From the NCBI GenBank assembly GCA_028824295.1, contig JAPPED010000033.1, positions 21,224 to 85,223 of the forward strand: a DNA stretch of 64,000 nucleotides. Reading direction: 5' to 3'. Each line of letters starts with the position of its first letter. Positions within the stretch are counted from its first letter, which is position 1. Positions 1 through 19,000 of this stretch are shown piece after piece. Position numbers and translations under genes: made by a program. The notes below the pieces were generated by a model. That model saw nothing but the letters and a program-made list of their open reading frames with translations, did no database searches and was not told the origin of the DNA. This DNA comes from Rhodospirillales bacterium. GTDB lineage: Bacteria; Pseudomonadota; Alphaproteobacteria; TMED109.

Positions 1-1081
1 GTAAAGGCTGCCTGGCTTCCAGCGGTTCCACCAAGGTTGCGTGAATCACGATGGCATCGATCCCGAATCCAGGATCCACGGTTTCGAGTTTGCCTGCGAA
101 CAGGCGCTGGAGATGATCCTTGTCCCGCGTCGGCCGGGAGGCCGCCACGGTGCGTTCGGCCATGCTTCCGTCGATCCCGAAACACCAGAGCGCAAGCCGT
201 CTTGCGCCATGCTGGCCGCGTTTCAGCGCAACCGTGAGCCGGGCCATCATGTTGGCCAGCGCCGTTTCCAATCCCTCTCGGTGCATGACCGGTTCCGCGA
301 AGTCCAGACGCCACCGATAAACCGGTGGCGGGGCCAGGAGGGAGAGATGTTCGTTCCGGTTGCCGAGCACCTGGTCGAGGCGCTGAAGCAGCCCGTTTTC
401 GGCGCCGCAGGGTGGGAATCTGCGCTCCAAGGCTGCGCGTGGCAATCGAGTGATCGCGCCGATGGTGCTTAGCCCCAGGTGACGCAGTGTCAGGGTGTGG
501 CTGCGCGTCACTCCGAGGGCCTCAACGGGCAGGGTCTTCAAGGCTGCCCGGACCTTGCCGGGTTTGACGATGCGTTGGTGCTCAAGGGCAAAGCGAGCCA
601 AGGCTCTGGCGGCACCGGGAGTATCGGCGAGCCCCAGGCGCGTCTCCAGCCCGAGCCTCGTCAGCCGTTTTGAAACCGTTTGCATCATCGCCTGCTCGCC
701 ACCGAACAGATGGGAGCAACCTGTGACATCGAGCAAGAGACCGTCGGCGCCGTCGCATGCGACGCGGGGTGTGAAACGGCCGCACCACAGTCCCAACTGC
801 ACGAGGGCTTGTTGGTCAGCGAGGGGATCCGCCTTTTCGACGGTGATTCCTGCCACCAGGGCACGGGCGTCGACCAGACGCATCCCCGGCATCAGGCCGG
901 TGTGTTCGGCCCGCTCATCGACGGCCGTCAGCACCATTCCGCGTCGACCGGGGGCCGCCAGTACCAGCGGAGGAGAGTTAACTCGCTCGAAGGACTGCGG
1001 GGCGGAATGTATTCCGCTCGTGGATAGCCGTCGCCGGTCGATGGCCCAGCGCGGCAGCCACACAGAAAGCACCCGCTTCAT
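1..1081 (-). CDS. imuB: ImuB, Y-family polymerase-like subunit of the ImuA-ImuB-DnaE2 mutasome (N-terminal ~360 aa; the 3' end lies beyond the left edge)
   Basis: Absent from the ORF track because it runs off the window. My reverse-complement translation from ATG 1081-1079 stays open to position 1. It reads MKRVLSVWLPRWAIDRRRL...LLLDVTGCSHLFGGEQAMM..., a typical ImuB N-terminus. It lies directly downstream of imuA. Confidence 0.85.
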   Translation of the reverse strand, partial: MKRVLSVWLPRWAIDRRRLSTSGIHSAPQSFERVNSPPLVLAAPGRRGMVLTAVDERAEHTGLMPGMRLVDARALVAGITVEKADPLADQQALVQLGLWCGRFTPRVACDGADGLLLDVTGCSHLFGGEQAMMQTVSKRLTRLGLETRLGLADTPGAARALARFALEHQRIVKPGKVRAALKTLPVEALGVTRSHTLTLRHLGLSTIGAITRLPRAALERRFPPCGAENGLLQRLDQVLGNRNEHLSLLAPPPVYRWRLDFAEPVMHREGLETALANMMARLTVALKRGQHGARRLALWCFGIDGSMAERTVAASRPTRDKDHLQRLFAGKLETVDPGFGIDAIVIHATLVEPLEARQPL

Positions 1082-1802
1082 GGTGCCACTCCACATTGCA
1101 CCGCGCTGGGCGACCGCCCCGGCAGCGGACGAGTCCGAGGCGCCACCGGGGCGCTCCGGGAGCGCGGATGTCGAGCGAGTCGTGAGCGGAGGGGAGAGTC
1201 CTGACCAGCCATCGCGTGGCCGCTGCGCTGGTTGGAACGAGTCCATCGTCGCGCAGCAGCAAGGCGGGGGTCATGCTTTCCTGAGCGGCCAGCGACAGCC
1301 GTCGGGTCATGGTGAAACCAATGCTCCTGATTTCGGCGAAAACCGCCGCCAGGGCGCCGGAGCGCAATCCTTCCTCCATGGCCCATAGGACCTCCTTGTC
1401 ATGCCGGGCTCGGACGATCAGCAGTGCGTCCGGATCCCCCCCGAGGTCGCGCCATCCCCAGCCATGTAGACGGCCGGATCGACTTGCATCGCTTTCACAG
1501 ATCAGGACGGTGTCACGTCCGGCCCGGTGCGACAGTCGATGCAGGAGGGCAACGAGAAAGGCTGCAGCCGACGGTCCGTCGGTGCCGGTGGTACCGGATG
1601 CTTCGTGCAAGGCGCCCGGCGTTAGCCCGTTAGGGGGGAGTGCGTCATCCAGCGTCTTGATTCCCGGAAGCCAGGCGGAATCCGGCTCGACAGGTGTGTG
1701 CTTCTTCGGTGGTCCTTCCAGCGCCGTGATCCGTTGCCGTAAGGTTGCCAGTGCGACGAAACGGGAGCTGTTATCCACGACGTGTCCGCCCGTTTCGTTC
1801 AT
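978..1802 (-). CDS. imuA: ImuA, RecA/SulA-like SOS mutagenesis protein
   Basis: 274-aa ORF (MNETGGHVVDNSSRF...GLTPGALHEASG...AAFLVALLHRL...). It sits between a LexA-type box and imuB. Its last ~34 codons overlap the imuB start by 104 nt. Confidence 0.8.
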   Translation of the reverse strand: MNETGGHVVDNSSRFVALATLRQRITALEGPPKKHTPVEPDSAWLPGIKTLDDALPPNGLTPGALHEASGTTGTDGPSAAAFLVALLHRLSHRAGRDTVLICESDASRSGRLHGWGWRDLGGDPDALLIVRARHDKEVLWAMEEGLRSGALAAVFAEIRSIGFTMTRRLSLAAQESMTPALLLRDDGLVPTSAAATRWLVRTLPSAHDSLDIRAPGAPRWRLGLVRCRGGRPARCNVEWHHEAGAFCVAAALGHRPATAIHERNTFRPAVLRAS

Positions 1803-1815
1803 TGGAGACCAGAAT

Positions 1816-1830
1816 GTTCTTTATATGTTC
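1816..1830. promoter_or_regulatory. Candidate LexA (SOS) operator of the direct-repeat type, GTTC-N7-GTTC
   Basis: GTTCtttatatGTTC lies 14-28 nt upstream of the imuA start codon in an AT-rich patch. It matches the alphaproteobacterial-type LexA box as I recall it. Confidence 0.6.
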
Positions 1831-2024
1831 TCTTAATGATATGTCAAGAACTGGATGTCGGATACAGAAGCCGGTCCTGGTCTAGCTTTTTTCGTGGTTT
1901 CTGTGCCCGCAAGGCCCGCTCGCCGGCTGCCCGGATGTTCTGCGGCAGCCAAGACCCCGTGGGGAGCGGGCACGCGTGTCTTGCCGCCATTCGCGGCCGA
2001 AGGATCCGCCAGGCCGCTTCCGCG

Positions 2025-2813
2025 TCACGCCTGGCGCGGATCTGGCTGTGAAGTCGGGCGGGACGTCCAGTGAGACACGACGCGGACCACGACGGCGGAC
2101 ACGGCAAAACAGAGTACGAGGAACGGTCCGGCCGGAAGATCAGCGGCAGCCGATGCCAGGATTCCTGCGATGACCGCCACGCCGCCGCTCAACAGGGCAC
2201 GCAACAAATTGTACGAACCATCCGCCCGTCGCCCGGCCAGCGCCGGCAGAATCAAGCTCGCGAAGACGACGTACACGCCCAACAATTGAACGGATGCGGT
2301 GATCGCAAGTGCAAACAGAAGAAAGAACCCTTGTCCGCTCCGGAGATTCGGGTACCCGAGCCACAGTCCCGCGACCAGCAGATACACCGGCAGGAATGCG
2401 GCCAAATCTGACCATGACGTGAACAGGATCTGCCCTGAGAGCACGTGCTCGAGCTCTTCCCCTCCATGCGGGCTGTTGGCGAGCAGCAGCAGTGTCACCG
2501 ACGCCGCAACGATGAAGCAGCTGCCGATGACCGCCTCCTGCTCGGCGGGCATGATCTTTTCCACCCACCGGAAAAAAAACGCAAACGTCGCCGCCGATCC
2601 GAATGCCGCGACCTGGATTCCGGCCCACGACGGCTCCATTACCCAGACGTTCAGCGCGACGATCGCGACGCCGGCCACCTGTGCCGTGGCAAGATCGATA
2701 AAGACGATTCCCCGCTTCAGGACCTCAATGCCAAGCGGCACGTGCAGCGCCGTACACAGGAGACCGGTCACGAACGCCGGCATGATGATCTCAAGGATCT
2801 CAGTATTGATCAT
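2025..2813 (-). CDS. Metal ABC transporter permease (ABC-3 / ZnuB-TroCD family)
   Basis: Taken from ATG 2813 (MINTEILEIIMPAFVTGLLCTALHVPLGIEVLKRGIVFIDLATAQ...). It gives 262 aa and is strongly hydrophobic and multi-pass. The first 103 aa of track ORF 2025..3122 overlap the upstream binding-protein gene and were dropped. Confidence 0.85.
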   Translation of the reverse strand: MINTEILEIIMPAFVTGLLCTALHVPLGIEVLKRGIVFIDLATAQVAGVAIVALNVWVMEPSWAGIQVAAFGSAATFAFFFRWVEKIMPAEQEAVIGSCFIVAASVTLLLLANSPHGGEELEHVLSGQILFTSWSDLAAFLPVYLLVAGLWLGYPNLRSGQGFFLLFALAITASVQLLGVYVVFASLILPALAGRRADGSYNLLRALLSGGVAVIAGILASAAADLPAGPFLVLCFAVSAVVVRVVSHWTSRPTSQPDPRQA

Positions 2814-3729
2814 GTACTTCTTCCAACAGCGCGAGCGTGACGTCAAAAAGGTCAAACAGGTTATCGACCCCCTCCAAGCCGCCGACGGTGAAGGGTAGCT
2901 CGACAATCGGGATTCCAGCCCTGTTGGAAAGCCACTCCATCCCCTTGGTCGGTTCATACGGGGCGCGGAGAATAGCCCGGGCTCCGGCACTCCGGGCCAG
3001 TTCCAGGACCTCTTGCAGATGGCTGACGGTCGGCGGGACACCGGGGAGGCGTTCGATCGCTGCGGCCTGTCTGATACCGGTCCACTCGTACAGGTAGGCC
3101 CACGATTCGTGGTACGCGACAACGGGCATGCCCGCTAGGCGCGACGACCGTTCCATCCATACTGCCGAGGCGCCCCGCCAACGCTCCTGGAATGCCGACA
3201 ACTGCTGGCGATAGGTTTCGGTGTTCTCCGGATCGATCACGACCAGCCGGCGGGCCAGCTCCGAGGCCATGTAGCCAATGTTCTCCGGCAGGAGTTGCAC
3301 GTGCGGATTCCCCTCCGCGTGCACGTGTCTGGGTCTGCGGTCGACGACGCTCGGAGGATCCAGCAATCGGACATGCTCGCTGGCGATCAGGTGTCCGGGC
3401 TGACCATGCTGGAGGGACGCACTCGCGCCAAGCTGCAGGAGAACAGGGAGCCAACCGTCCTCCAGGCCTGCCCCGGTGCAGAACAGCACATCCGCCCGGC
3501 GCACGTGTTCGATGAGACTGGGGCGCATCCGGATGTAGTGTGGGTCTTGACGGCCATGCGTTCCCGCGTAGACGCTGACCGCATCGCCCCCGATTTCCGA
3601 GGCCAGGGCCGCCCACTCGGGTTCGCAGGCAAAAATCCGCACCTCGGCGACGGCCGGGGATGGTTCGACCATCACCAGCACGGCCAACGGGGCGCCCCAG
3701 ATCGCCCACGCAAGTGGTTTCAGCAACAT
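2800..3729 (-). CDS. Periplasmic metal-binding protein, TroA/ZnuA family (copy 2)
   Basis: ATG 3729 gives MLLKPLAWAIWGAPLAVLVMVEPSPAVA (signal), then AEVRIFACEPEW...QDPHYIR...GNPHVQ.... By eye it is about 50% identical to the copy at 4524..5444. It overlaps the permease start by 14 nt. An alternative start at 3753 is possible. Confidence 0.85.
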   Translation of the reverse strand: MLLKPLAWAIWGAPLAVLVMVEPSPAVAEVRIFACEPEWAALASEIGGDAVSVYAGTHGRQDPHYIRMRPSLIEHVRRADVLFCTGAGLEDGWLPVLLQLGASASLQHGQPGHLIASEHVRLLDPPSVVDRRPRHVHAEGNPHVQLLPENIGYMASELARRLVVIDPENTETYRQQLSAFQERWRGASAVWMERSSRLAGMPVVAYHESWAYLYEWTGIRQAAAIERLPGVPPTVSHLQEVLELARSAGARAILRAPYEPTKGMEWLSNRAGIPIVELPFTVGGLEGVDNLFDLFDVTLALLEEVHDQY

Positions 3730-4442
3730 TGCTCGGCCCCAATTGTTACGCATGGCCGCATACGTTCCCAAACTCATGATGGGCTGCAGGTACACTTGGG
3801 CGTCAGTCTCAACGTGGGTCAGGGATCCCCGGCCGAGCTGCAACGGCGTCCGTCCGAAGCCACTGTTGGCCCGCTCGGCCGTCGGCGTGATGGTGGAAGG
3901 ATAGTGTTCGACCTTGTACTCGTCGCGCATCGCGTCGGTGGCCGAACTGACCGGACTAAGGCGTGTGCGACGGGCACCAATCCGCCGAGCGTGGTTGAAC
4001 GCGTAGGTGTGTGGCAACGTGTCAGCCGGCCCCTGCGCCCTCGACTTCGTGTATGTCCAGTTCTTCTTCGACTGCGCAGTAGTCGTTTCCGATTCGTCAG
4101 AAAACGTCACCCGGCAGGGTGAGCCCCTGTTTGCGGAGAATGCCGGTGGGCGCAAATGCGCCGTGGACATTAAAATCGTGGGAAGGCGTGTCCGCGGAAA
4201 ATGGGCCTTCTGCGAGCCGATCATGATGCTCATGCTCGTCGTCATCGGCATGGTCATCCCGTGGTCGTCGCCACTCCTGCGCCCGGCAGTGATCCGCTCG
4301 ATCCATACGCACTGATCGGAACCGACGGGTTGCGGCTGAATTCACCCGCAAGGCCGACGTTGCCGAGAACGCGCCAACAACGTTGCCGGAAGCGGGGAAG
4401 GGAACGTCGTCCCGGAAAAGCCCCACTCCGGCTTCCGCGCAC
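3730..4442 (-). pseudogene. Decayed, N-terminally truncated copy of the His/Asp-rich outer-membrane barrel gene (paralog of 5456..7114)
   Basis: Similarity to residues ~320-552 of the intact protein is spread over three reading frames. GLFRDDVPFPASGN matches GLFRGDDVPFAGSANG. WRVLGNVGLAGEFSRN..ISAY matches WSVFGRMGGDFGRNGAWRIGAY. DDHADDDEHEHH..VHGAFAPTG..LTLPGDVF matches the HD repeat ..VDARVTWAPTGN..ILQGEVFW. RRIGARRTRLSP matches FRIGARYARLTP. VYLQPIMSLGTYAA matches ILLQYIMSLGAHAA. The terminal Phe and stop codon are lost, so the frame runs into the binding-protein ORF. Confidence 0.65.
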
Positions 4443-4523
4443 GAAGCGATCAGAAACGCGGACGCAAACTCGAGTCTGGTATCGCTATCGGGTTTGTCGC
4501 TGAAGCCCCGGTACCGAAGCAGA

Positions 4524-5444
4524 CTAGTCGGGAATGGCCTCCAGCCGGGTCAGGATCTCGGAGAAGTACGAAAAGAGGTCCGTGACCTCGGGGAAGGAAC
4601 CCACCGTGGAGGGCAGCTCCACGAGCGGGAGGCCACTTCGCTCCGACAGCCATTCCGCGGCGTCGGTGGGCTCGTAATTAGCACGAACGATGGCCTTGAC
4701 TTCCGTCGAACGGGAATGTTGGAGCACTTCCTGAAGGTATGGAGCGGACGGCGGGATGCCGGGCACGCGCTCCATGGAGGTGACCTTTTCCAAGCCCAAC
4801 CAGTTGAAAAGGTAGGCCCAGAAGGCGTGCTGAACGATCAGCGGGGTGCCACGGAGCGCTTCCGCGCGGGGCTCCCATTGCGCCATTGCGTTGTCCCAGC
4901 GGGCATGGAAGTCCGCCAGCCGGGACTGGTAGGCATCGGCACGATCAGGATCGATTGCGCCGAGGCGTGCGGCGACCTCGCTGGCAAGCACCGTGATGTT
5001 GCGGGGGTCAGCGTGGACGTGCGGATTGCCGCTTGCATGGACGTCACCCATGCTGCGGTCGATGACCGTGGGACGTTCCAGGACCTCCACGTGTTCGGCC
5101 GCCATCAGGTGGCCCGGCTGTCCCGGCTGGATGCCCAGTCGTCCGCCCCGTTGCATCAGGACCGGGAGCCAGCCGACCTCAAGCTCGGCCCCGGAGCAGA
5201 ACAGGAGGTCCGCCCGGCGGATCTGGGCGATCAGGCTCGGCCGGGCGCGGATGTGATGGGGGTCCTGCCCGCCGTGCGTCGCGGAGTACACGGTCACGTC
5301 ACTGCCGCCCACTTCCTGGGCAAGGGAAGCCCACTCGGGTTCGCAGGCGAATACCCGCACCTCCGCCGAGGCCGGGAGCGTGGACAGGGCTGCCGCTGCC
5401 GCCAGGCAGCCCGCCACCAGGGTGCGTGTAAGGAAACGATGCAT
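4524..5444 (-). CDS. Periplasmic metal-binding protein, TroA/ZnuA family (copy 1)
   Basis: 306 aa. Signal peptide MHRFLTRTLVAGCLAAAAALSTLPASA. Motifs ACEPEW, QDPHHIR and SGNPHVH are typical of cluster-9 metal-binding proteins. GGAGGG lies upstream of the ATG. Confidence 0.9.
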   Translation of the reverse strand: MHRFLTRTLVAGCLAAAAALSTLPASAEVRVFACEPEWASLAQEVGGSDVTVYSATHGGQDPHHIRARPSLIAQIRRADLLFCSGAELEVGWLPVLMQRGGRLGIQPGQPGHLMAAEHVEVLERPTVIDRSMGDVHASGNPHVHADPRNITVLASEVAARLGAIDPDRADAYQSRLADFHARWDNAMAQWEPRAEALRGTPLIVQHAFWAYLFNWLGLEKVTSMERVPGIPPSAPYLQEVLQHSRSTEVKAIVRANYEPTDAAEWLSERSGLPLVELPSTVGSFPEVTDLFSYFSEILTRLEAIPD

Positions 5445-5455
5445 CGCGCCCTCCG

Positions 5456-7114
5456 TCAGAACGTGTGGGCCGCGTGGGCGCCGAGGCTCATGATGTACTG
5501 CAGCAGGATCTGGTCATCCTGCTCGACGAATACTGGGGCATCTTCGCCGTGCGCGTCCAACCTGCCATGGACGAAATTCTGGACTTCCTCGCGGTTGTAC
5601 TGCAGCCGAATGCGGCTGAACTCGCTGTTGGTCCAGTCCGCCATGACCGCGTAGCCAACGGAGTCGTCGAGTGCAGGAGTGACAAGGTCATGTTCGCAAT
5701 GGTCGCCGTGCAGCACGCACCCAGGGATGTCCGGTGGGGTCAGCCGCGCGTAGCGGGCACCAATCCTGAAGTTGCGATTGAGTTTGTAGATGCCCTGCAC
5801 GTAGAACCCCATGGCGGTCGAATCGGTGAATGTCGGGGTGTCGTACTCGCCAGGAAGGCTGTAGTAGCCGTCCTCTACCCGCCAGAACACCTCGCCCTGA
5901 AGGATCACCTCCTGTTCGCGGGGATTGCCCGTGGGCGCCCAGGTCACACGGGCGTCGACGGCATACATGGTCGCGTCGCCCGAAAACTCGCCGTCGGTGA
6001 ACGCGTCGATATTTGCCCACGCCGCGAGACCTTCGTCTTCAGCGTGGTCGTCGTGATCGTCGTCGTGCGCGTCATGGTCGTCGTCATGCGCGTCGTGGTC
6101 ATCATCGTGTGCGGCGTGATCGTCATCATGCGCGTCGTGGTCGTCGTCGTGTGCGGCGTGATCGTCATCATGCGCGTCGTGGTCGTCGTCGTGCGCATCG
6201 TGGCCGTGTTCGTCTTCCTCCCCGCCATGCGCGTGGTCGTGGCCGCCAGCGCGGTTGTGAGCTTCGCCTGCCATCATGTAGGCGCCGATGCGCCACGCAC
6301 CGTTGCGGCCGAAGTCACCGCCCATCCGCCCAAAGACAGACCAGGCATTGCGGCCGTTCGCCGAACCTGCGAAGGGGACGTCGTCGCCGCGGAACAACCC
6401 GCCGCCGACCTCGGCGTAGATGTCGGTCGGCAGGACGTAGGAGAGCTCAAGGCCGTCGTCGTTGAACGAGTGGTCAAGGAAGGCCCGGTAGGGGATGGGA
6501 CGGTCGGAGAAATCGTCGGCGTGCAAATGGATCTCGTTGAGGTACCCGAAGGTCCACAGCGCCCGCCCGGCCTTGATTCGTGCCCCGTCCGGCAGACCGG
6601 CGCCCGGCAGCGTCTGGATGTAGAACTCCTCCACCTCCAGTTCGACCGACTCGCCCGGAGGGACTTCCAACGCGATCGTCGCGGCCCCGAAGAACTTGTC
6701 GTCCACATTCCCGGTCAGCGTGAATTCGGGGTGGCCCAGCGAGAAACCTTCGACAGGACGTTCGGCACCGTGTCCCACCTGGAATCCGGCAGGCGCGAAG
6801 GCCTCAGATTGGGTCGAGTACCGGGGATCCAGGACCATGCCGATCGCGGGATTGAAGACATTGTCCGTGGTGAATGCCTTGCGCCCCATCGGGGAGACCG
6901 CTGGCTGTGCGGGCTGGGCCGGGGTAGTCGTCATGGCCTCGAGCTGCCCTTCCAGGGCCTGGATGCGGGCCTCGTATTCCTGCTTGATGGCCTGGATCTC
7001 GGCAGCGAGTTCCTCTGCCGTCGGTGCCGAATCCTGGGCGTGCGCCTGAAGCGCGATGCAGACCATGATGGACGAGAGGCCTGCTGTCCACAGAGCCTGG
7101 ACGATGGTGCGCAT
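5456..7114 (-). CDS. Putative outer-membrane beta-barrel (porin-like) with an N-terminal coiled coil and a His/Asp-rich repeat loop
   Basis: Trimmed to ATG 7114. Signal peptide MRTIVQALWTAGLSSIMVCIALQAHA, then a heptad-like segment AEELAAEIQAIKQEYEARIQALEGQLEAM. An NVFNPAIGMVLD motif and alternating beta-strand-like sequence follow, and the protein ends ...SLGAHAAHTF. An internal ~70-aa run reads HDHAHGGEEDEHGHDAHDDDHDAHDDDHAAHDDD.... Confidence 0.75.
   Translation of the reverse strand: MRTIVQALWTAGLSSIMVCIALQAHAQDSAPTAEELAAEIQAIKQEYEARIQALEGQLEAMTTTPAQPAQPAVSPMGRKAFTTDNVFNPAIGMVLDPRYSTQSEAFAPAGFQVGHGAERPVEGFSLGHPEFTLTGNVDDKFFGAATIALEVPPGESVELEVEEFYIQTLPGAGLPDGARIKAGRALWTFGYLNEIHLHADDFSDRPIPYRAFLDHSFNDDGLELSYVLPTDIYAEVGGGLFRGDDVPFAGSANGRNAWSVFGRMGGDFGRNGAWRIGAYMMAGEAHNRAGGHDHAHGGEEDEHGHDAHDDDHDAHDDDHAAHDDDHDAHDDDHAAHDDDHDAHDDDHDAHDDDHDDHAEDEGLAAWANIDAFTDGEFSGDATMYAVDARVTWAPTGNPREQEVILQGEVFWRVEDGYYSLPGEYDTPTFTDSTAMGFYVQGIYKLNRNFRIGARYARLTPPDIPGCVLHGDHCEHDLVTPALDDSVGYAVMADWTNSEFSRIRLQYNREEVQNFVHGRLDAHGEDAPVFVEQDDQILLQYIMSLGAHAAHTF
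6044..6214. repeat. In-frame tandem repeat (42-bp unit, 21-bp sub-periodicity) encoding (HDAHDDD)n
   Basis: GTGTGCGGCGTGATCGTCATCATGCGCGTCGTGGTCGTCGTC occurs twice perfectly in tandem (6107-6148 and 6149-6190). It is flanked by degenerate copies at 6065-6106 and from 6191. Confidence 0.85.
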
Positions 7115-7226
7115 GTCGAAAGCCTTTTCCTGTTCCGAGCGAGAGTTGGGCGTCGGTTTCCTCGTCCCGCACAACAGATGTGCCGTTTGAAAGGTCTCCG
7201 GGCGGACTCCCGGAGCGGATGAAACC

Positions 7227-7253
7227 TTATAACAGCTGTTACATAGTAACAAC
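7227..7253. promoter_or_regulatory. Candidate Zur/Fur-family operator (two overlapping palindromes)
   Basis: The site TTATAACAGCTGTTACATAGTAACAAC contains two palindromes, TAACAGCTGTTA and TGTTAC-ATA-GTAACA (7237-7251). The second matches 12/15 positions of the TGTTATAWTATAACA Zur core as I recall it. It lies 113-140 nt upstream of the barrel gene start. Confidence 0.4.
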
Positions 7254-7380
7254 CGTTGCCCTGCCTCGAGTACCGGAAGGTGACCCCTGCGGGCCGCGCA
7301 CGGAATCATTCTCACCTGCTCCGCACGTATCGTGCTCGCGGTCGGTGCGAGCACCAGTTGCCCGGCTCGCAGGTCTCAGG

Positions 7381-7695
7381 TCAGGCGGACATCGGAGGAG
7401 CGCGGATGCGGTTTGCTCGCAGTGTGCGAGTCGCGACCGGAAGCGAGGTGGTCGTGGTTGGCGGCTCGAGAAAGCTGAGTGCGCGATCCTGCAGAGTAAT
7501 AGGGAGAAGAGAAATCTCTGCAGAAACAAGCGGGAACTCGCATGGCCCTTGCTCATCGTGCGAATGCTCGTCGTGGCCGAACTCCACCGCATGGTGGCTG
7601 GCGGCGACTTGCGCAACCAGTAGACCGACAGCGAGCGGGACGCAGAGGCAGCTTCGGGTCAGGGACGTGATCCTGTGACCAGCGTAGCGAGCCAT
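7381..7695 (-). CDS. Hypothetical small secreted His-rich protein
   Basis: 104-aa ORF with a signal-like LCVPLAVGLLVAQVAAS followed by HHAVEFGHDEHSHDEQ. It is on the same strand and upstream of the metal locus. Codon bias weakens in the second half. Confidence 0.3.
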   Translation of the reverse strand: MARYAGHRITSLTRSCLCVPLAVGLLVAQVAASHHAVEFGHDEHSHDEQGPCEFPLVSAEISLLPITLQDRALSFLEPPTTTTSLPVATRTLRANRIRAPPMSA

Positions 7696-8009
7696 TTCGT
7701 CAGACTACATGACCTGTCCAGCCCCCAGCTAGCGGGCTGGCGTGAAGGATCCAGTCGCACCGGCAAGCCTGTTTCCTGACGGCCGCGCCGGGCCCACAAC
7801 CAGAGCGGTGGCTCGTGTTCCGACCCGCCCGATGCTCAGTTTTCCGATGCGGTGTGTGCGCCCTGCGCACTGCTAGCTTCGGATCCACGAAAGCAGGAAT
7901 CCGCATAGATTCCGTGATTTCAATCGTGCTTGCTATCGGCGGCCGGCGGAGCGCCAGCATTGCGGACGGTGGTCGGCCAAGTACACTGGCTTGACGAGGA
8001 GGATTGCGA

Positions 8010-8249
8010 ATGAGTTCCCCAATCGTTGCCCAAGAGGAGCCCTTCTGCGTCGAAGTCGAGGCTGGAAAGAACTACGCCTGGTGTGCCTGTGGCAGAAGCG
8101 AGAAGCAGCCCTGGTGTGATGGCTCACACCGGGACACAGAGTTCTCGCCGGTCGTATGGAAGGCAGAGAAATCAGAAACGGTGTTCCTGTGCGGGTGCAA
8201 GTCGACCGGCGACAAGCCGTACTGTGATGGCACCCACAACATGCTTTGA
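8010..8249 (+). CDS. CDGSH iron-sulfur domain protein (two CDGSH motifs)
   Basis: CACGRSEKQPWCDGSH and CGCKSTGDKPYCDGTH. GAGGAGG lies 7 nt upstream of ATG 8010; the track start at 8004 is TTG. Confidence 0.9.
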   Translation: MSSPIVAQEEPFCVEVEAGKNYAWCACGRSEKQPWCDGSHRDTEFSPVVWKAEKSETVFLCGCKSTGDKPYCDGTHNML

Positions 8250-8251
8250 CC

Positions 8252-9052
8252 ATGTGGACGACTGAGCAATCGGCAGCGGTGCTGCTGGAACACCGGCGCA
8301 AGCTTCGACCCCAGCACGAACTCCCATCGGGAGCGGTACCTGCGGACCGGGATGCGGCGTACCGCGTGCAGGATGCACTGATCCAGCTTCACCTTGATGC
8401 GGGCGACGGCCCGGTGGCGGGGTGGAAGGTCGCGCTCACCAATCCGGCCATGCAGGCAATGTTTGGTGTGGACGAGCCGGCCGAAGGCGCCATCTTCGGG
8501 CCCCTCGTGCATGCATCGGGGAAACGACTGGATCCCGGAAAGTACCGTCATCTGGGTGCGGAGGGCGAAATCGTCCTCCGCATGCGCGAGTCGCTCACGC
8601 CGGACCAGGCTCCGTTTACCGCAGAATCGGTGTCCGAGTCCGTCGGCGGGTACATGGCCGGGATCGAGATCGTCGACGATCGGGATGCGGGCGCGGACGC
8701 GACCATCGGGCTCCTCGTGGCCGACAACGCGATGAACTACGGCTGCGCGCTCGGGCGCGAATCGGCGTACACACCGACGATCGATCTCGCGCGTGTTTCC
8801 GGGCGGTTGACGATCGACGGTCAGCCGGCGGGGGAGGGCGTCGGCGAGAACGTGCTGGGTGGTCCGCTGCACGTCCTGGCGTTGCTGGGGAACTCGCTGG
8901 CGAGACGCGGCCGGAGCCTGCGGGCGGGTGACATCGTCATGACGGGAAGCCTGGCGGTGACCGTCTGGCCGCAACCGGGTGAGGCGATTCGGTGGGAGGT
9001 TGATGGACTTGATCCCGTTGAGTTCTCGCTTGCCCCCGACGGGACGACGTAA
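8252..9052 (+). CDS. 2-keto-4-pentenoate hydratase (MhpD)-like, fumarylacetoacetase-fold hydratase/decarboxylase
   Basis: AYRVQDALIQL...GWKVALTNPAMQ...GAEGEIVLRM...IEIVDDR...AGDIVMTGSL. ATG at 8252; an alternative TTG at 8246 overlaps the CDGSH stop. Confidence 0.85.
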   Translation: MWTTEQSAAVLLEHRRKLRPQHELPSGAVPADRDAAYRVQDALIQLHLDAGDGPVAGWKVALTNPAMQAMFGVDEPAEGAIFGPLVHASGKRLDPGKYRHLGAEGEIVLRMRESLTPDQAPFTAESVSESVGGYMAGIEIVDDRDAGADATIGLLVADNAMNYGCALGRESAYTPTIDLARVSGRLTIDGQPAGEGVGENVLGGPLHVLALLGNSLARRGRSLRAGDIVMTGSLAVTVWPQPGEAIRWEVDGLDPVEFSLAPDGTT

Positions 9053-15296: not shown

Positions 15297-16088
15297 ATGT
15301 CTGATCATCTTTTGGAATCACGCGACAACGGCGTGGCATGGCTCACCCTGAACCGCCCGGATCGCCTGAACGCGATGAGCAACGAGATGCTGGATGGTCT
15401 CCTTGCCTCCATGCTTCGATTGGCTGCGGATGAGGAAGTCGGCTGTGTCGTGCTGACCGGAGCGGGACGCGGATTCTGCGCCGGCGGTGACGTCAAGGGC
15501 ATGGCGCAGGGGTCACTTCGGGAAGCCAGCCTCGAGGGCCGGATGCAGGCGCTGCGGCGCAGGATGGAAGTCAGCCGCGTGATCTACGAGATGCCGAAGC
15601 CGGTGGTGGCCATGGTTCGCGGTCCCGCCGCCGGGGCCGGGCTGTCGGTGGCCCTGGCCTGCGACCTCCGAATTGGCGACGAGACCGCGCTGATGACAAC
15701 TGCGTTTGCACAGGTCGGGCTGTCGGGCGACTTCGGTGGATCTTGGTTCTTGTCCCGACTGGTTGGTGCCGGCAAGGCCAAGGAACTCTATCTCACGGCC
15801 GCCCGGCTCACGGCATCCGACGCTCTTGAACTGGGGATCCTCAATCGCGTGGTGGCCAGTGACGCCCTCGAAGCCGAGACCCGGGCGTTGGCGGAGGGGC
15901 TGGCCTCGGGGCCCCGCGTCGCGCTGGGCTACATGAAGCAAAATCTCAACGGCGCCTGGACGGCTTCCCTATCCGAGACGCTGGACATGGAAGCCCGCAA
16001 CCACACACGTTCGGGCTTTACCGAAGATCACCTGGAGGCCTCCAAGGCCTTTGTCGAAAAGCGGAAGCCCGAGTTCAGCGGCCGCTAG
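15297..16088 (+). CDS. Enoyl-CoA hydratase/isomerase (crotonase) family
   Basis: LTLNRPDRLNAM...VVLTGAGRGFCAGGDVKG...MVRGPAAGAGLSVALACDLRI. Confidence 0.9.
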   Translation: MSDHLLESRDNGVAWLTLNRPDRLNAMSNEMLDGLLASMLRLAADEEVGCVVLTGAGRGFCAGGDVKGMAQGSLREASLEGRMQALRRRMEVSRVIYEMPKPVVAMVRGPAAGAGLSVALACDLRIGDETALMTTAFAQVGLSGDFGGSWFLSRLVGAGKAKELYLTAARLTASDALELGILNRVVASDALEAETRALAEGLASGPRVALGYMKQNLNGAWTASLSETLDMEARNHTRSGFTEDHLEASKAFVEKRKPEFSGR

Positions 16089-16148
16089 CGCTCGGCGTGC
16101 GATTGCCGGATCCGGCGCCCCACCGGGGGCGGGACAGCCGCGGCGGAA

Positions 16149-16685
16149 TCAGAGCATCCGCTTGAGCGTGCCGTGCTTGTCGACAAATTGGTGTTTGAGG
16201 GCGGCGCCGGCATGGATGACCACGACCGGCAGGAGTCCGTAGGCGACGGCCGCGTGCACGCCGATGGCCAGATCCCGCAGGGTTTCCGACTGCGGGAAGA
16301 CGGCCGGGATCACGAACAGGTCGAGAAACGGAAAACCGGCGCCGGCCGAGGTCGAGATCACGTAGCCGGAGGCCGGTAGGGCAAAGACGGCGCACAGCAG
16401 CAGGGCGTGGGTGAGGCGTGCCCCGTGCCGTTCCCAGTCGCGGAGTTCGGCCTGGAGCGGCGGGGACGGCGATACGAACTTCCAGACGGCGAACAGGACG
16501 GCCAATCCCAGCGCGGCCATTCCCAGCGAGCGATGCAGCGACAACGCCAAGTTGTACCGGCTGTCGAGGTAGCTCAGGTCCACTATCCAGGCACCCAGCG
16601 CGGTCAGTCCGATGATCCCGGCCGCAAGGAGCCAGTGAAGAAGTTTGCTCGCCAGGCCGTAGCTGCTTTCGGTGTTGTACAGCAC
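16149..16685 (-). CDS. Cytochrome b561 family protein
   Basis: GTG start. KLLHWLLAAGIIGL..., four hydrophobic helices with conserved His. Paired with the yceI-like gene, as is common. Confidence 0.85.
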   Translation of the reverse strand: MLYNTESSYGLASKLLHWLLAAGIIGLTALGAWIVDLSYLDSRYNLALSLHRSLGMAALGLAVLFAVWKFVSPSPPLQAELRDWERHGARLTHALLLCAVFALPASGYVISTSAGAGFPFLDLFVIPAVFPQSETLRDLAIGVHAAVAYGLLPVVVIHAGAALKHQFVDKHGTLKRML

Positions 16686-16706
16686 GACGTGGTGGCGGGC
16701 GCCGCG

Positions 16707-17297
16707 CTACTGCCGGATCGCCTCGAGCATCAGGTGGATTTCGACTTCCTCTGCCGCCGGCCCCAGGTTGTAGTCCATGCCGAAGTCCCGGCGTTTGAGG
16801 ACATAGGTGCCTTCGAAGCCCGCGCGGTAGCCTCCCCAGGGATCACTCCCTTCACCGATCAGGCGGACGGGGAACGAGATGGATTTCGTTACCCCGAGCA
16901 ACGTCAGGTCTCCGGTCAGGGTGCCGCCGTCCGCGTTCCCCTGGAAGCCGGTGCTGACGAAGGTCACCTCGGGGAACTCGTCCACGTTGAAGAAATCCTC
17001 GTTGCGCAGATGCTTGTCTCGTTCCGCATGATTGGTGTCGAGACTGGTCGCGTCGATGGTGACTCGGATGCTCTGCACATCTGGCCCGGATTGCGGATCG
17101 TAGGTCATGCTTCCCTCGAAGCGATTGAAGCGACCGACCAGCCAGCTGAAGCCTAGGTGCTGGGTCCGAAATTGAATGAACGAGTGGCTTGGGTCGACCG
17201 TGTATTCCGCCGCACTCGCTGGAATGCCCGGACCCGTGGAGAGGAGGGCAGCCAGCACGGCGGCAAGGAAGACGGGCGTGGTGGTTCGATACGTCAT
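16707..17297 (-). CDS. YceI family periplasmic (polyisoprenoid-binding) protein
   Basis: From ATG 17297: signal peptide, then AEYTVDPSHSFIQFRTQHLGFSWLVGRFNRFEG...HAERDKHLRNEDFFNVDEFP. Confidence 0.9.
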   Translation of the reverse strand: MTYRTTTPVFLAAVLAALLSTGPGIPASAAEYTVDPSHSFIQFRTQHLGFSWLVGRFNRFEGSMTYDPQSGPDVQSIRVTIDATSLDTNHAERDKHLRNEDFFNVDEFPEVTFVSTGFQGNADGGTLTGDLTLLGVTKSISFPVRLIGEGSDPWGGYRAGFEGTYVLKRRDFGMDYNLGPAAEEVEIHLMLEAIRQ

Positions 17298-17425
17298 GGG
17301 AGGCACGGCGGTTCCGGGAGAAGATGGCGTGAGAGTAGCAAGCAGGCAGGCGGCGGGCACGGCGTCCCGACGCTGCCCCGTTAACCGGCGCAGGTCGGTT
17401 CGGCGAATGGGCAGTGGTATGCTAG

Positions 17426-17638
17426 ATGCCTATGTCTTTTGCTGGACCAGTTGTGCGTCTATTGCTTCGTCGGGCGGCGGCGGACCCGCGTGTTCGGAAG
17501 GCAGCCGCGGAGACTGCTGCCTCGGCAGTTCGCGAGGCGCGCGATATCGTCAACGACCCGTCGCCGGCCCGAAAACTCGGACGCCTTGCCGGCCGCGCGA
17601 AGCGGCGGCTTTCGGAGGCCGTGCGGAGCGACCACTAA
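17426..17638 (+). CDS. Hypothetical 70-aa Ala/Arg-rich protein (weak call)
   Basis: The ORF ends 2 nt before the proposed GTG start of the outer-membrane efflux gene. GC3 is moderate to high. There is no good SD and no recognisable family. Confidence 0.3.
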   Translation: MPMSFAGPVVRLLLRRAAADPRVRKAAAETAASAVREARDIVNDPSPARKLGRLAGRAKRRLSEAVRSDH

Positions 17639-17640
17639 CT

Positions 17641-19000
17641 GTGCCGGGTCAGGTTGGAGTGTACTGGAGGCTCGGGCAGGCAGTGGCTTGCGCGCTGGCC
17701 CTCGCTGCATGCAACAGCCCAGAGGTACCGCCCAAGCCCCTAAACCCTGAGGTCGCCGCATTTGATCGTCTCCAGATGGCGTTGCCTGGCGGAGATGGGC
17801 CGATCGACGCGGAAGCCCTGGTGCTGGCCGCTATCGAGTACGCACCCTCCCGCCGCCGGGCGGAGGCCCGTTTGGCCCACATGGCTGCGTCCGTGCAGTT
17901 GACGGAGGTTAACCAGCCGTTCCTGTACGCACCGGAAGTCGAGTACCACACGGAAGGGGCGCCCTGGACTTTGGGATTGTCGGTCGAACGACCCTTTACC
18001 CGCGAAACCCTGCGGACAGCCCGAACTGACGCTGCGGTTGCCGAACGCGTAGCGGCGCAATGGGCTCTCGAGCGCGTGGGATGGGAGGTACGCGACCATA
18101 TCCTGAAGGCTCTTGTGCGCATCGAGCACACGCGCCTTGAAATCGCCTTTGCCGAGGAAGATGTCGAACTACGGACGCAGGTGGAGGCGATGCTGCGGCA
18201 GGGGCTTCAGGCCGGCGTGTCGCGTCTGGCAGACGCCCAGCGAGCGGCCGCCCTTGCCCAGCAGGCCAGGCTCGCGCTCGACGCGGCGCGCTCGCGGGCG
18301 GCGGAGGCCGAGACCGCACTTGCGGCTGCTCTTGGCGTGTCGCGAATGGCGGTTCTGGGACGTGGAATCCGGCCACCGGTCGGTGAGTTGCTGCCGTCAC
18401 AAGTCGACCCCGCCCAGTTCGACGCGATGCTTCGCCGGGCCCTGGTGCGCCGCTCCGATGTACTGGTGAAGATTGCCGCCTATGGTGCGGCCGAGGCGAG
18501 GCTCCGCGTGACGCTGGCCGAGCTGACTCCCGATATCACCATGGGGCCAGGCATCCTTTGGGACCAGAAGGACCTTGTGCTGCGTCTTGCCGGCGCCATC
18601 GTTCCGGTGCCCGAGATTACGGATGCGCGGGTCGCGATTGCGCTGGCACACCGGGACGAGGCTCGTCTGGCCTTCGAAGAGATGCAGGCACAGGTCCTCG
18701 CCGATGCCGAATCGGCATGGTCCCAGTTGGCCACGGCGGGCCGGGAATCCGCATCGGCGGAAGCCGAAATCACCGCCGCCAGCGAGTACGCTGCGCAAAC
18801 CGCGACTGCAATCCGTCAGCGCACGTTGCCGGCTGCCGCTAAGCCTGACGCGGATCTTCGGTTGCTTGCGGCTCGCAGGGCGGCGGCAGCGGCGGAGTTG
18901 CGCAGGCAAATGGCCTTGATCAATCTGGAATTTGCGATGGAACGGATATTCAGCGACGATTCGGTTCCACGCGGAGCCCCCTGGCACCGCCCATCGCGGG

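Follow-up and report, generated by a model that had tools for sequence, protein, structure and literature searches.

High-affinity import of zinc across the bacterial inner membrane is mainly ascribed to ATP-driven ATP-binding cassette (ABC) transporters, and passage of zinc across the outer membrane is, to our knowledge, well described for TonB-dependent receptors only. We analysed a locus that may bear on both steps, in a 64-kb stretch of contig JAPPED010000033.1 from the assembly GCA_028824295.1 of a Rhodospirillales bacterium (genome of 3.0 Mb, 97.9% complete); this whole stretch is called the window below. The locus encodes a predicted outer-membrane barrel, ZnuA-type substrate-binding proteins (SBPs) and a ZnuB-like permease. 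We read it, with a probability of about 0.6, as a self-contained cassette for zinc acquisition during zinc starvation, built around an ATPase-free membrane domain, and its copy in the window as two cassettes spliced together.

A cluster of this kind has been named omr-znuAII-znuBII in Vibrio parahaemolyticus, V. vulnificus and V. campbellii (PMC9817125). That report describes the cluster as Zur-repressed and gives its genes in V. parahaemolyticus, in a table under a Zur-regulon heading, as upregulated 283- to 1034-fold. Double mutants in zrgA and another binding-protein gene, as well as the triple mutant, grew worse under TPEN than the zrgA single mutant, and znuA and znuAII could partly complement the loss of zrgA (PMC9817125). 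In a second report, Vpa1307 (ZnuAII) was induced by zinc depletion and helped growth under this condition (PMC3794297). The Vibrio cluster, its control by Zur and zinc and its auxiliary, minor role in zinc-limited growth are known, and the cassette is widespread and partly characterised. The accessible portions of the two texts carry no remark on a missing ATPase or coupling helix (PMC3794297, PMC9817125), and literature searches on ABC-3 systems lacking an ATPase or on porins with a His loop gave no relevant result.

Membrane protein and ATPase search in the cassette family

A preliminary description of this DNA, made from the sequence, had listed a small secreted ORF (open reading frame), a candidate Zur box, an intact and a decayed barrel gene, two binding proteins and a permease. 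ORF listing and hidden Markov model (HMM) scans located every one of these elements, all on the minus strand, with two matches to PF01297 (ZnuA), one to PF00950 (ABC-3), and none of the barrel to a porin family. The description had also reported that no ORF with Walker A or B motifs lies between 1803 and 7700. This was borne out, as six-frame translations of window positions 1-9000 gave no match to the Walker A pattern G-x4-GK[ST], to LSGGQ, or to an HMM of the ABC nucleotide-binding domain (NBD) built from 20 of this genome's own ATPases. The nearest NBDs in the window lie at 26.4-27.6 kb and 55.7 kb.

Two canonical ABC-3 systems are found elsewhere in this genome (C3 and C1), each with an adjacent ATPase; a znuABC operon occupies C3:122.9-125.6 kb. 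Searches with both ABC-3 ATPases across the genome recovered, beyond the ATPases themselves, generic relatives only and no unpaired ZnuC-like ATPase. The same search in three other cassette-bearing genomes (G001, G002 and G005) found no unpaired ZnuC-like ATPase either, each one sitting beside a canonical permease. A cognate ATPase was therefore found neither in the operon nor unpaired elsewhere in the genome, at 97.9% completeness.

To place the cassette among its relatives, 80 loci were fetched from species-representative genomes. The barrel gene, a ZnuA-type SBP gene and a ZnuB-like permease gene were contiguous and co-oriented in all 76 loci that hold the three genes, and no ATPase gene lay inside or abutting the cassette in any of these 76. 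The arrangement, which the preliminary description had called unlike the textbook znuABC, thus recurs throughout the family. Four genomes with unrelated flanks shared the order barrel, ZnuA, ABC-3 and nothing else. The hosts are labelled as Alpha- and Gammaproteobacteria, Thermodesulfobacteriota and Dadabacteria. Many of them are metagenome-assembled genomes, and presumably, judging from isolate names and general knowledge, of sponge origin. Within the window's own order the barrel was present in 33 of 46 genomes, and in 11 of 11 of the same genus.

ATPase genes in the neighbourhood of other cassettes were considered as partners. The ATPase pair upstream of the cassette in L013 was rejected, being the LivG/LivF of a complete Liv-type operon, as were further NBD genes that lie less than 10 kb from the cassette in a handful of loci; these were similar pairs or lay on the opposite strand. 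In L031, an ABC ATPase gene followed by a weak ZnuA-like match lies 2.5 kb downstream of the cassette (15756-18477); the two probably form a separate canonical system.

A tblastn search of plasmid records with the permease gave a match on the 2.06-Mb V. campbellii replicon NZ_CP050465.1, which is filed as a plasmid in PLSDB. This locus (L090, 3921-6777) has the three genes in the same order, their products being homologous to those of the window (E = 4e-52, 2e-72 and 4e-39), and no ATPase; two perfect Zur boxes lie directly upstream. Its permease also matched the ABC-3 profile in two pieces, as described below for the window. In the V. campbellii SBP, H68 and H147 correspond to H69 and H148 published for Vpa1307, an offset of one residue, and the third His, H211, does not agree with the published H202. 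On gene order, homology of all products and the operator sequence upstream, the window cassette belongs to the Vibrio omr-znuAII-znuBII family. The V. campbellii "omr" protein has 380 amino acids and no Pfam match, hence no Plug domain, despite its annotation as a TonB-dependent receptor. From its sequence, this annotation looks wrong.

The permease of the window matched PF00950 in two pieces, with profile positions ~137-170 absent, and the same was seen in five other genomes. Its AlphaFold model (predicted local distance difference test score, pLDDT, 88; predicted template-modelling score, pTM, 0.85) had PsaC (7kyp) as the top Foldseek match, with a template-modelling score (TM-score) of 0.65-0.70, followed by other type II ABC membrane domains. 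By profile and predicted fold it is therefore a type II ABC membrane protein. In Escherichia coli ZnuB the coupling helix comprises residues 154-162, and the contact between ZnuC and ZnuB is made chiefly by this helix and the Q-loop of ZnuC (PMC12236471). A phmmer alignment of the permease to E. coli ZnuB (9oko) had gaps over residues 150-158 and 163-171, and hhalign placed a 17-residue gap at SADLATVAGL of this genome's own ZnuB. In the model, residue 152 is the last of transmembrane helix 5 (TM5) and residue 159 the first of TM6, with a link of ~6 residues between the two helices. At the point after TM5 where a cytoplasmic coupling helix is expected, there is a deletion of 17-18 residues. 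Alignments and model thus indicate loss, across the permease family, of the coupling helix on which ZnuC docks. The suggestion in the preliminary description that the permease works with an ATPase encoded elsewhere fares poorly here, since its family lacks the coupling helix and the ZnuC- and TroB-type ATPases each lie beside a canonical permease of their own.

An Asp/His translocation site is conserved in characterised Mn and Zn ABC importers (PMC8346216). At this site in TM2 (D46/H50 in PsaC, D36/H40 in ZnuB) the permease keeps an invariant Asp, D39; the His position is occupied by Thr or Ala, and an invariant Gln44 follows. The other invariant polar residues, besides Q44, are H23, E29, E84, E92 and D224, and H115 is nearly so. 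The permease is the most conserved gene product of the cassette, with a mean column identity of 69% across phyla and a ratio of non-synonymous to synonymous substitution rates (dN/dS) of 0.12-0.25.

Outer-membrane barrel and binding proteins

The barrel protein consists of a signal peptide, a predicted coiled coil in the periplasm (residues 33-63) and a predicted 16-strand beta-barrel, and its sequence ends in ...GAHAAHTF. Its AlphaFold model, built with 58 sequences, had a mean pLDDT of 67 and a pTM of 0.66; the strands reached a pLDDT of 70-90, and low values were confined to the termini, the linker and the loops. The top PDB matches in Foldseek were AlgE, OprO, PorB, chitoporin and DcaP (E = 1e-9 to 2.5e-11), all of them outer-membrane barrels, and the barrel-like nature supposed in the preliminary description was in this way supported by structure prediction. 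Searches of Pfam and NCBIfam assigned the protein to no family, including no porin family (for example PF07396), and no precomputed Pfam domain was found among the 120 barrel relatives listed. The family is large, with more than 1000 relatives at 90% clustering, and 397 representatives at E <= 1e-30 or 1699 at E <= 1e-10 in a 50%-identity library. A signal peptide, 16 strands and a C-terminal aromatic residue, the features of a 16-strand porin, are all present at the level of this model (pLDDT 67). Pfam detected neither a Plug nor a TonB_dep_Rec domain in the 552 residues, and the model has 16 strands as against 22 in TonB-dependent receptors of ~700 or more amino acids. The barrel is probably a trimeric, porin-like outer-membrane channel that is not TonB-dependent.

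Between strands 9 and 10 lies a loop (L5, residues 289-376) with 20 His, 38 Asp or Glu and HDAHDDD repeats, which are encoded by an in-frame tandem array of 21/42 bp at 6049-6207. The loop itself had been noticed in the preliminary description, where its length was put at ~70 amino acids; we measured 88. The short turns at residues 138-140, 228-232, 268-271, 445-448 and 498-499 were taken as periplasmic, and because of this assignment, by strand counting, L5 would be the outward-facing extracellular loop 5. A His/acidic loop was present at the L5 position in all 58 aligned family members, with a length of 36-110 amino acids and 6-24 His. The repeat units differ between lineages, other lineages using unrelated units such as NGDHAGHEDEDEDE or MHHEDEDEHDHEEE. 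This independent and recurrent expansion suggests selection for a longer metal-chelating loop. Two further elements were invariant in the family: an NE-H-H-DDF-DR motif in a helix-bearing loop between strands 5 and 6 (residues 190-206, window ~6497-6547), and the two His of the C-terminal GAHAAHTF (residues 547-550, window ~5465-5476). The motif and the C-terminal His pair may form a metal filter inside the pore.

SBP1 is a ZnuA-family periplasmic binding protein with a signal peptide and zinc ligands His63, His142 and His206. Its best PDB match is the Synechocystis ZnuA (1PQ4/2OV1), with which the three ligand His align, and H63, H136, H142 and H206 were invariant in 85 family SBPs. The locus therefore encodes a PF01297 protein with a three-His metal site. 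NCBIfam gave sub-threshold matches only, to both the AztC and the MntC models. The His-rich loop of classical ZnuA is absent from both SBP1 and SBP2.

SBP2 is 53% identical to SBP1, and both genes are under constraint, with dN/dS values of 0.14-0.23 for SBP1 and 0.09-0.23 for SBP2. Judged from its sequence, SBP2 is also a functional ZnuA-family binding protein, and it is the orthologue of the one SBP present in cassettes of the same genus. It departs from the family consensus near the metal site (H144Q, D261K). The change H64Y next to the metal site also occurs in SBP2 and in its orthologues with H144Q and D261K; at positions 144, 261 and 64 SBP1 and most of the family have H, D and H/Y, respectively. 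SBP1 and SBP2 may differ in affinity or metal preference. The SBP2 gene ends within the permease gene, whose start overlaps it by 14 nt.

Regulatory elements and the junction of two cassettes

A perfect 15-bp palindrome, TGTTACATAGTAACA (TGTTAC-TAT-GTAACA), begins 123 nt before the start codon of the barrel gene. The 64-kb window has no second match, against a chance expectation of 0.02. The pattern TGTTA-N5-TAACA occurs at four places in the 3.0-Mb genome, all of which share the architecture TGTTAY-N3-RTAACA. At C13:93062-95566 the site overlaps the start of a Fur-family gene, which is followed by genes for a His-loop ZnuA and a CobW/COG0523 GTPase; at C28:32178-34682 it lies ~400 nt upstream of a TonB-dependent receptor gene; and the site at C26:104758 has no assignable gene. 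These three sites are predicted to make up the rest of the Zur regulon. Of 79 related loci scanned for Zur boxes and leader ORFs, 21 had a match of at least 11/12 to the Zur box within 400 nt upstream of the barrel gene, and there was one match in 1.5 Mb of flanking sequence. Control of the cassette by a Zur operator is well supported by these sequence comparisons, and the candidate Zur box of the preliminary description proved to be both unique in the window and recurrent upstream of related barrel genes.

Directly downstream of the palindrome, TGTTATAAG at 7226-7234 is invariant in six close relatives, including those with a decayed palindrome, and is possibly an extended -10 element. A hairpin at 7196-7215 (CUCCGGG-AGUCCG-CCCGGAG), whose stem bases do not vary among six relatives, belongs to the minimum-free-energy fold. 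The fold of the RNA between leader and barrel gene was not clearly better than that of shuffled sequence (z = -1.9).

Upstream of the palindrome lies the leader ORF, with a signal-peptide-like N-terminus, the His/Cys motif SHHAVEFGHDEHSHDEQGPC and a C-terminal RANRIRAPPMSA followed by the stop codon. In close relatives the leader is 68-94% identical, with a dN/dS of 0.36-0.55, and the copy in L012 has two in-frame stops. An ORF of 94-154 codons occupies the same place in ~22 of the 79 related loci, from Alphaproteobacteria and from Thermodesulfobacteriota/Dadabacteria, and these homologues share the N-terminal hydrophobic segment and the His/Cys motif. In an alignment of 14 leaders, H35, H46 and R-x-P-P were invariant, with I(R/T)R(A/G)PP placed 2-5 residues before the stop. 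PF11162 (DUF2946) matched 5 of the 14 weakly, the best at E = 0.0044.

RAPP and RGPP are experimentally strong arrest motifs, the strongest known of their class; proteomes avoid them, but they are over-represented at the C-terminal ends of small exported proteins encoded ahead of metal genes (PMC12992588). CruR uses RAPP to control a copper receptor (PMC12992588), and CutF works similarly (PMC9973294). The preliminary description had seen here a small His-rich secreted ORF. To this can be added the hallmarks of a RAPP-type arrest leader: a small ORF upstream on the same strand, an export signal, a metal motif and a C-terminal RAPP/RGPP sequence near the stop. The leader is a probable RAPP-type ribosome-arrest peptide that senses periplasmic metal.

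Leader and Zur box look like alternatives. Almost none of the ~22 loci with a leader had a Zur box, and ~18 loci had a Zur box without a leader; the loci are related, so that these counts are not independent. In leader loci a Zur box was generally missing, whether in front of the leader or between it and the barrel gene. Both elements occurred together only in the window's subclade, apparently owing to the splice described below.

Comparison with the same-genus locus L031 defined the junctions. Window positions 9500-7344 aligned by blastn to L031 7727-9885 at 91% identity, and the alignment ended ~40 nt past the leader stop codon. From 7344 to 4009 the similarity was weak and paralogous only. 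Window positions 4009-1984 were 79.6% identical to L031, spanning the L031 barrel 3' end, SBP and permease, and locus L017 extended this match to 4268. The segment between the conserved blocks measures 3.3 kb in the window versus 1.3 kb in L031. The upstream flank at 91% and the SBP2-permease part at 79.6%, both against L031, differ in identity, so that either the history or the evolutionary rate is not the same on both sides of the junction.

The relic upstream of SBP2 covers the barrel from ~residue 235 onward and is frameshifted. Its best matches were barrels of the same-genus loci L017, L031, L022 and L039 (130-154 bits, 45-52% identity over a C-terminal stretch); the adjacent intact barrel scored 33 bits by direct tblastn and fell outside the 25 best. 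The open frame of the relic had a dN/dS of 0.63-1.02, as for neutral evolution, and the equivalent relics in relatives contain stop codons. SBP2 nests with the SBPs of L031, L017, L022 and L039, and SBP1 is placed elsewhere, next to that of L077. The preliminary description had rightly recognised two ZnuA-type SBPs and a decayed barrel gene, and had taken the former as duplicated and the latter as a second copy; the SBPs are not sister genes, and the relic is the genus's resident barrel. A tandem duplication as the source of the two SBPs and the relic was rejected on account of the different clades of the SBPs, the likeness of the relic to same-genus barrels and the defined junctions against L031.

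By these sequence comparisons, an incoming segment carrying the Zur promoter, the barrel gene and SBP1 took the place of the intergenic region and of roughly 235 codons at the start of the barrel gene in a resident leader-type cassette. The splice accounts for the leader stranded upstream, the barrel relic and the presence of two working binding proteins. The intact barrel is sister to resident-type barrels (support 0.92), and because of this position the donor would have been a fairly close relative; the same position leaves as a caveat that an old paralogue may be involved. In L079 (9908-13571) a complete cassette in inverted orientation, with permease, SBP and barrel on the opposite strand, faces a truncated barrel gene, and here too the arrival of another copy may have cut a resident barrel. 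The barrel gene of L064 (9950-11519) lies in two overlapping ORFs, reflecting a frameshift or an assembly error. The features of the window are collected in Table 1. Downstream of the cassette, HMM scans identified ImuA-like and ImuB-like genes.

Table 1. Features of the spliced cassette, in window coordinates
Feature	Position	Strand	Remarks
Leader ORF, 104 aa	7381-7695	minus	signal-peptide-like N-terminus, His/Cys motif, C-terminal RAPP-type end
Left junction of replaced segment	7338-7344		blastn identity to L031 stops
Candidate Zur operator, 15-bp palindrome	7237-7251		
Possible extended -10 element	7226-7234	minus	
Hairpin, presumed 5' untranslated region of barrel gene	7196-7215	minus	
Barrel gene, 552 aa	5456-7114	minus	signal peptide, helix 33-63, C-terminal ...GAHAAHTF
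Loop L5 of barrel, residues 289-376	5987-6250	minus	
SBP1, 306 aa	4524-5444	minus	PF01297, E = 1.6e-39
Barrel pseudogene relic	~3730-4540	minus	3' part, frameshifted
SBP2, 309 aa	2800-3729	minus	PF01297, E = 3.1e-34; alternative start 3753
ZnuB-like permease, 262 aa, 9 TM helices	2025-2813	minus	PF00950, 53 bits versus cut-off 20.1

Proposed route of zinc and relation to known systems

An envelope-spanning route, probably for zinc, had been put forward in the preliminary description, and a porin-like barrel with a chelating loop, ZnuA-type SBPs and a ZnuB-like membrane protein support such a route. When zinc is scarce, Zur would leave the palindrome at 7237-7251 and the operon would be transcribed. 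The porin-like channel would concentrate Zn2+ on its extracellular His/Asp loop and admit it to the periplasm, where SBP1 and SBP2, with three His ligands each, would bind it and hand it to the ZnuB-like inner-membrane protein, presumably a dimer. Having lost its coupling helix, this protein would be unable to dock an ABC ATPase, and transport would for that reason be ATP-independent, probably driven by the membrane potential together with a very low level of free zinc in the cytoplasm, with docking of the binding protein as the gate. We tentatively suggest, as a possibility, that the ZnuB-like protein represents a third class of SBP-dependent secondary transporter after TRAP and TTT: a type II ABC domain that has shed its ATPase and passes Zn2+ down its electrochemical gradient on docking of a ZnuA-type protein, with a zinc porin of its own and, in many lineages, a zinc-sensing RAPP peptide instead of Zur.

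The cassette could instead be an ordinary ABC importer that borrows its ATPase in trans, either the canonical ZnuC at C3:122.9-125.6 kb or the second ABC-3 ATPase on C1. Its permease keeps the overall type II ABC transmembrane fold, and one or more canonical ABC-3 systems complete with an ATPase were present in every cassette-bearing genome examined. However, the coupling helix, which is the main contact of ZnuB with ZnuC (PMC12236471), is deleted across the family, and a borrowed ZnuC would have to bind a membrane domain that has no docking helix. Nor does an unpaired ZnuC-like ATPase occur in the four genomes searched, and the operon has recruited no ATPase gene in 76 of 76 loci over several phyla. 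We therefore consider a borrowed ATPase unlikely, and infer that ATP-independent import gated by the binding proteins is the stronger reading of the two.

Zinc is probably the substrate, as indicated by the invariant ZnuA His ligands, by the Zur-type palindromes common to the cassette, the zur-znuA-cobW locus and the TonB-dependent receptor gene, and by the zinc response of the Vibrio cluster. Import of another metal (Mn, Fe(II), Ni, Co or Cu), with the palindrome serving another Fur-family regulator, would be in keeping with the range of Zn, Mn and Fe specificities among cluster A-I SBPs, with the sub-threshold NCBIfam matches to AztC and MntC, and with the sensing of copper by the related leaders CruR and CutF (PMC12992588, PMC9973294). 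This appears improbable, given that the three-His ligand set is a hallmark of ZnuA, that the same type of palindrome precedes this genome's locus of Fur-family, His-loop ZnuA and CobW genes, and that the Vibrio homologue is zinc-responsive (PMC3794297, PMC9817125). More improbable still is that no zinc enters the cytoplasm by this route, the porin and SBPs buffering or storing periplasmic zinc and the ZnuB-like protein acting as an anchor, a sensor or an efflux valve. The lack of an energy-coupling module, the missing His of the translocation site and the absence of a phenotype in the Vibrio ZnuAII single mutant (PMC9817125) would fit such a function. It is difficult to reconcile with a membrane protein that is the best conserved of the cassette and has invariant His, Glu and Asp in its helices, with the translational coupling of the permease to an SBP, and with derepression under zinc lack, which fits uptake.

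Several points weigh against the reading of the locus as a zinc acquisition cassette with an ATPase-free membrane domain. Which metal is carried, in what direction and by which source of energy are deductions, and the case for ATP-independence hinges on a docking element missing from alignments and model. A canonical ZnuBC or TroBCD system is likewise present in all genomes checked, with which a borrowed ATPase would be compatible, and at 97.9% completeness of the genome the absence of an ATPase is not absolute. The loss of the translocation-site His may mean that the ion path differs or that the protein conducts no zinc, and the znuAII single mutant of V. parahaemolyticus had no growth phenotype (PMC9817125). 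Confidence in the barrel model is moderate (pLDDT 67), with query-normalised TM-scores of 0.35-0.41 to known porins, and the outward orientation of the loop comes from counting strands and not from coordinates. The window's own leader has no PF11162 match, and a scan with consensus promoter and terminator models found no sites, including no sigma-70 site at 7226-7234, which makes the promoter assignment weak.

If the proposed route is true, a zinc-specific porin and an ATPase-free ABC-type membrane domain would change the pictures of zinc passage across both the outer and the inner membrane, and the latter would show that, in nature, a membrane domain of ABC type can evolve into a secondary carrier. 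An SBP-dependent ABC-type membrane domain that has apparently shed its ATPase, as judged by alignment and model, would be the most unusual property of this small cassette of three or four genes. The annotation of Vibrio omr as a TonB-dependent receptor would be corrected, and the leader would be a candidate zinc-responsive member of a recently recognised group of regulators, the RAPP arrest peptides. The window also contributes a clear instance of a merger between two cassettes.

Among described systems, omr-znuAII-znuBII resembles the window in the order of outer-membrane protein, ZnuA-type SBP and ZnuB-like permease, in the lack of an ATPase gene and in the Zur boxes upstream. Its outer-membrane protein differs from the window barrel in its length of 380 amino acids, its lack of an N-terminal coiled coil and its short His loop, and the Vibrio cluster has no leader ORF and one binding protein. 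With ZnuABC and PsaABC the cassette shares the SBP fold and its three His ligands, the type II membrane fold and Zur control. Unlike these importers, it has no ATPase and no coupling helix and has lost the translocation-site His; its His-rich capture element is carried by the porin rather than by ZnuA, and an outer-membrane gene is part of the operon. In TRAP and TTT systems a periplasmic SBP feeds a membrane carrier that has no ATPase, as we infer for the cassette, whereas their membrane folds are unrelated and their substrates are organic anions; ion coupling is established for TRAP.

The barrel is likewise comparable to DcaP of Acinetobacter and to OprO/OprP, 16-strand barrels like the one predicted here and among the top Foldseek matches, and DcaP also has an N-terminal periplasmic coiled coil. 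In contrast to these porins, the window barrel belongs to no detectable sequence family, and the His/Asp loop and the NE-H-H-DDF-DR motif are specific to its relatives. CruR of Bordetella pertussis and CutF of Rhodobacter capsulatus are nascent peptides of the DUF2946 type that sense metal and have a RAPP or proline-rich arrest motif at the C-terminus. The leader resembles them as a small ORF directly upstream of a metal-transport gene, with an export signal and a metal motif ~50-60 residues before a RAPP/RGPP sequence near the stop. It differs in its His-rich motif, which in alphaproteobacterial loci has a single Cys and not CxxC/CxxxC, in its presumed ligand, zinc, and in its weak or absent match to PF11162; and in the window a Zur promoter separates the leader from the barrel gene.

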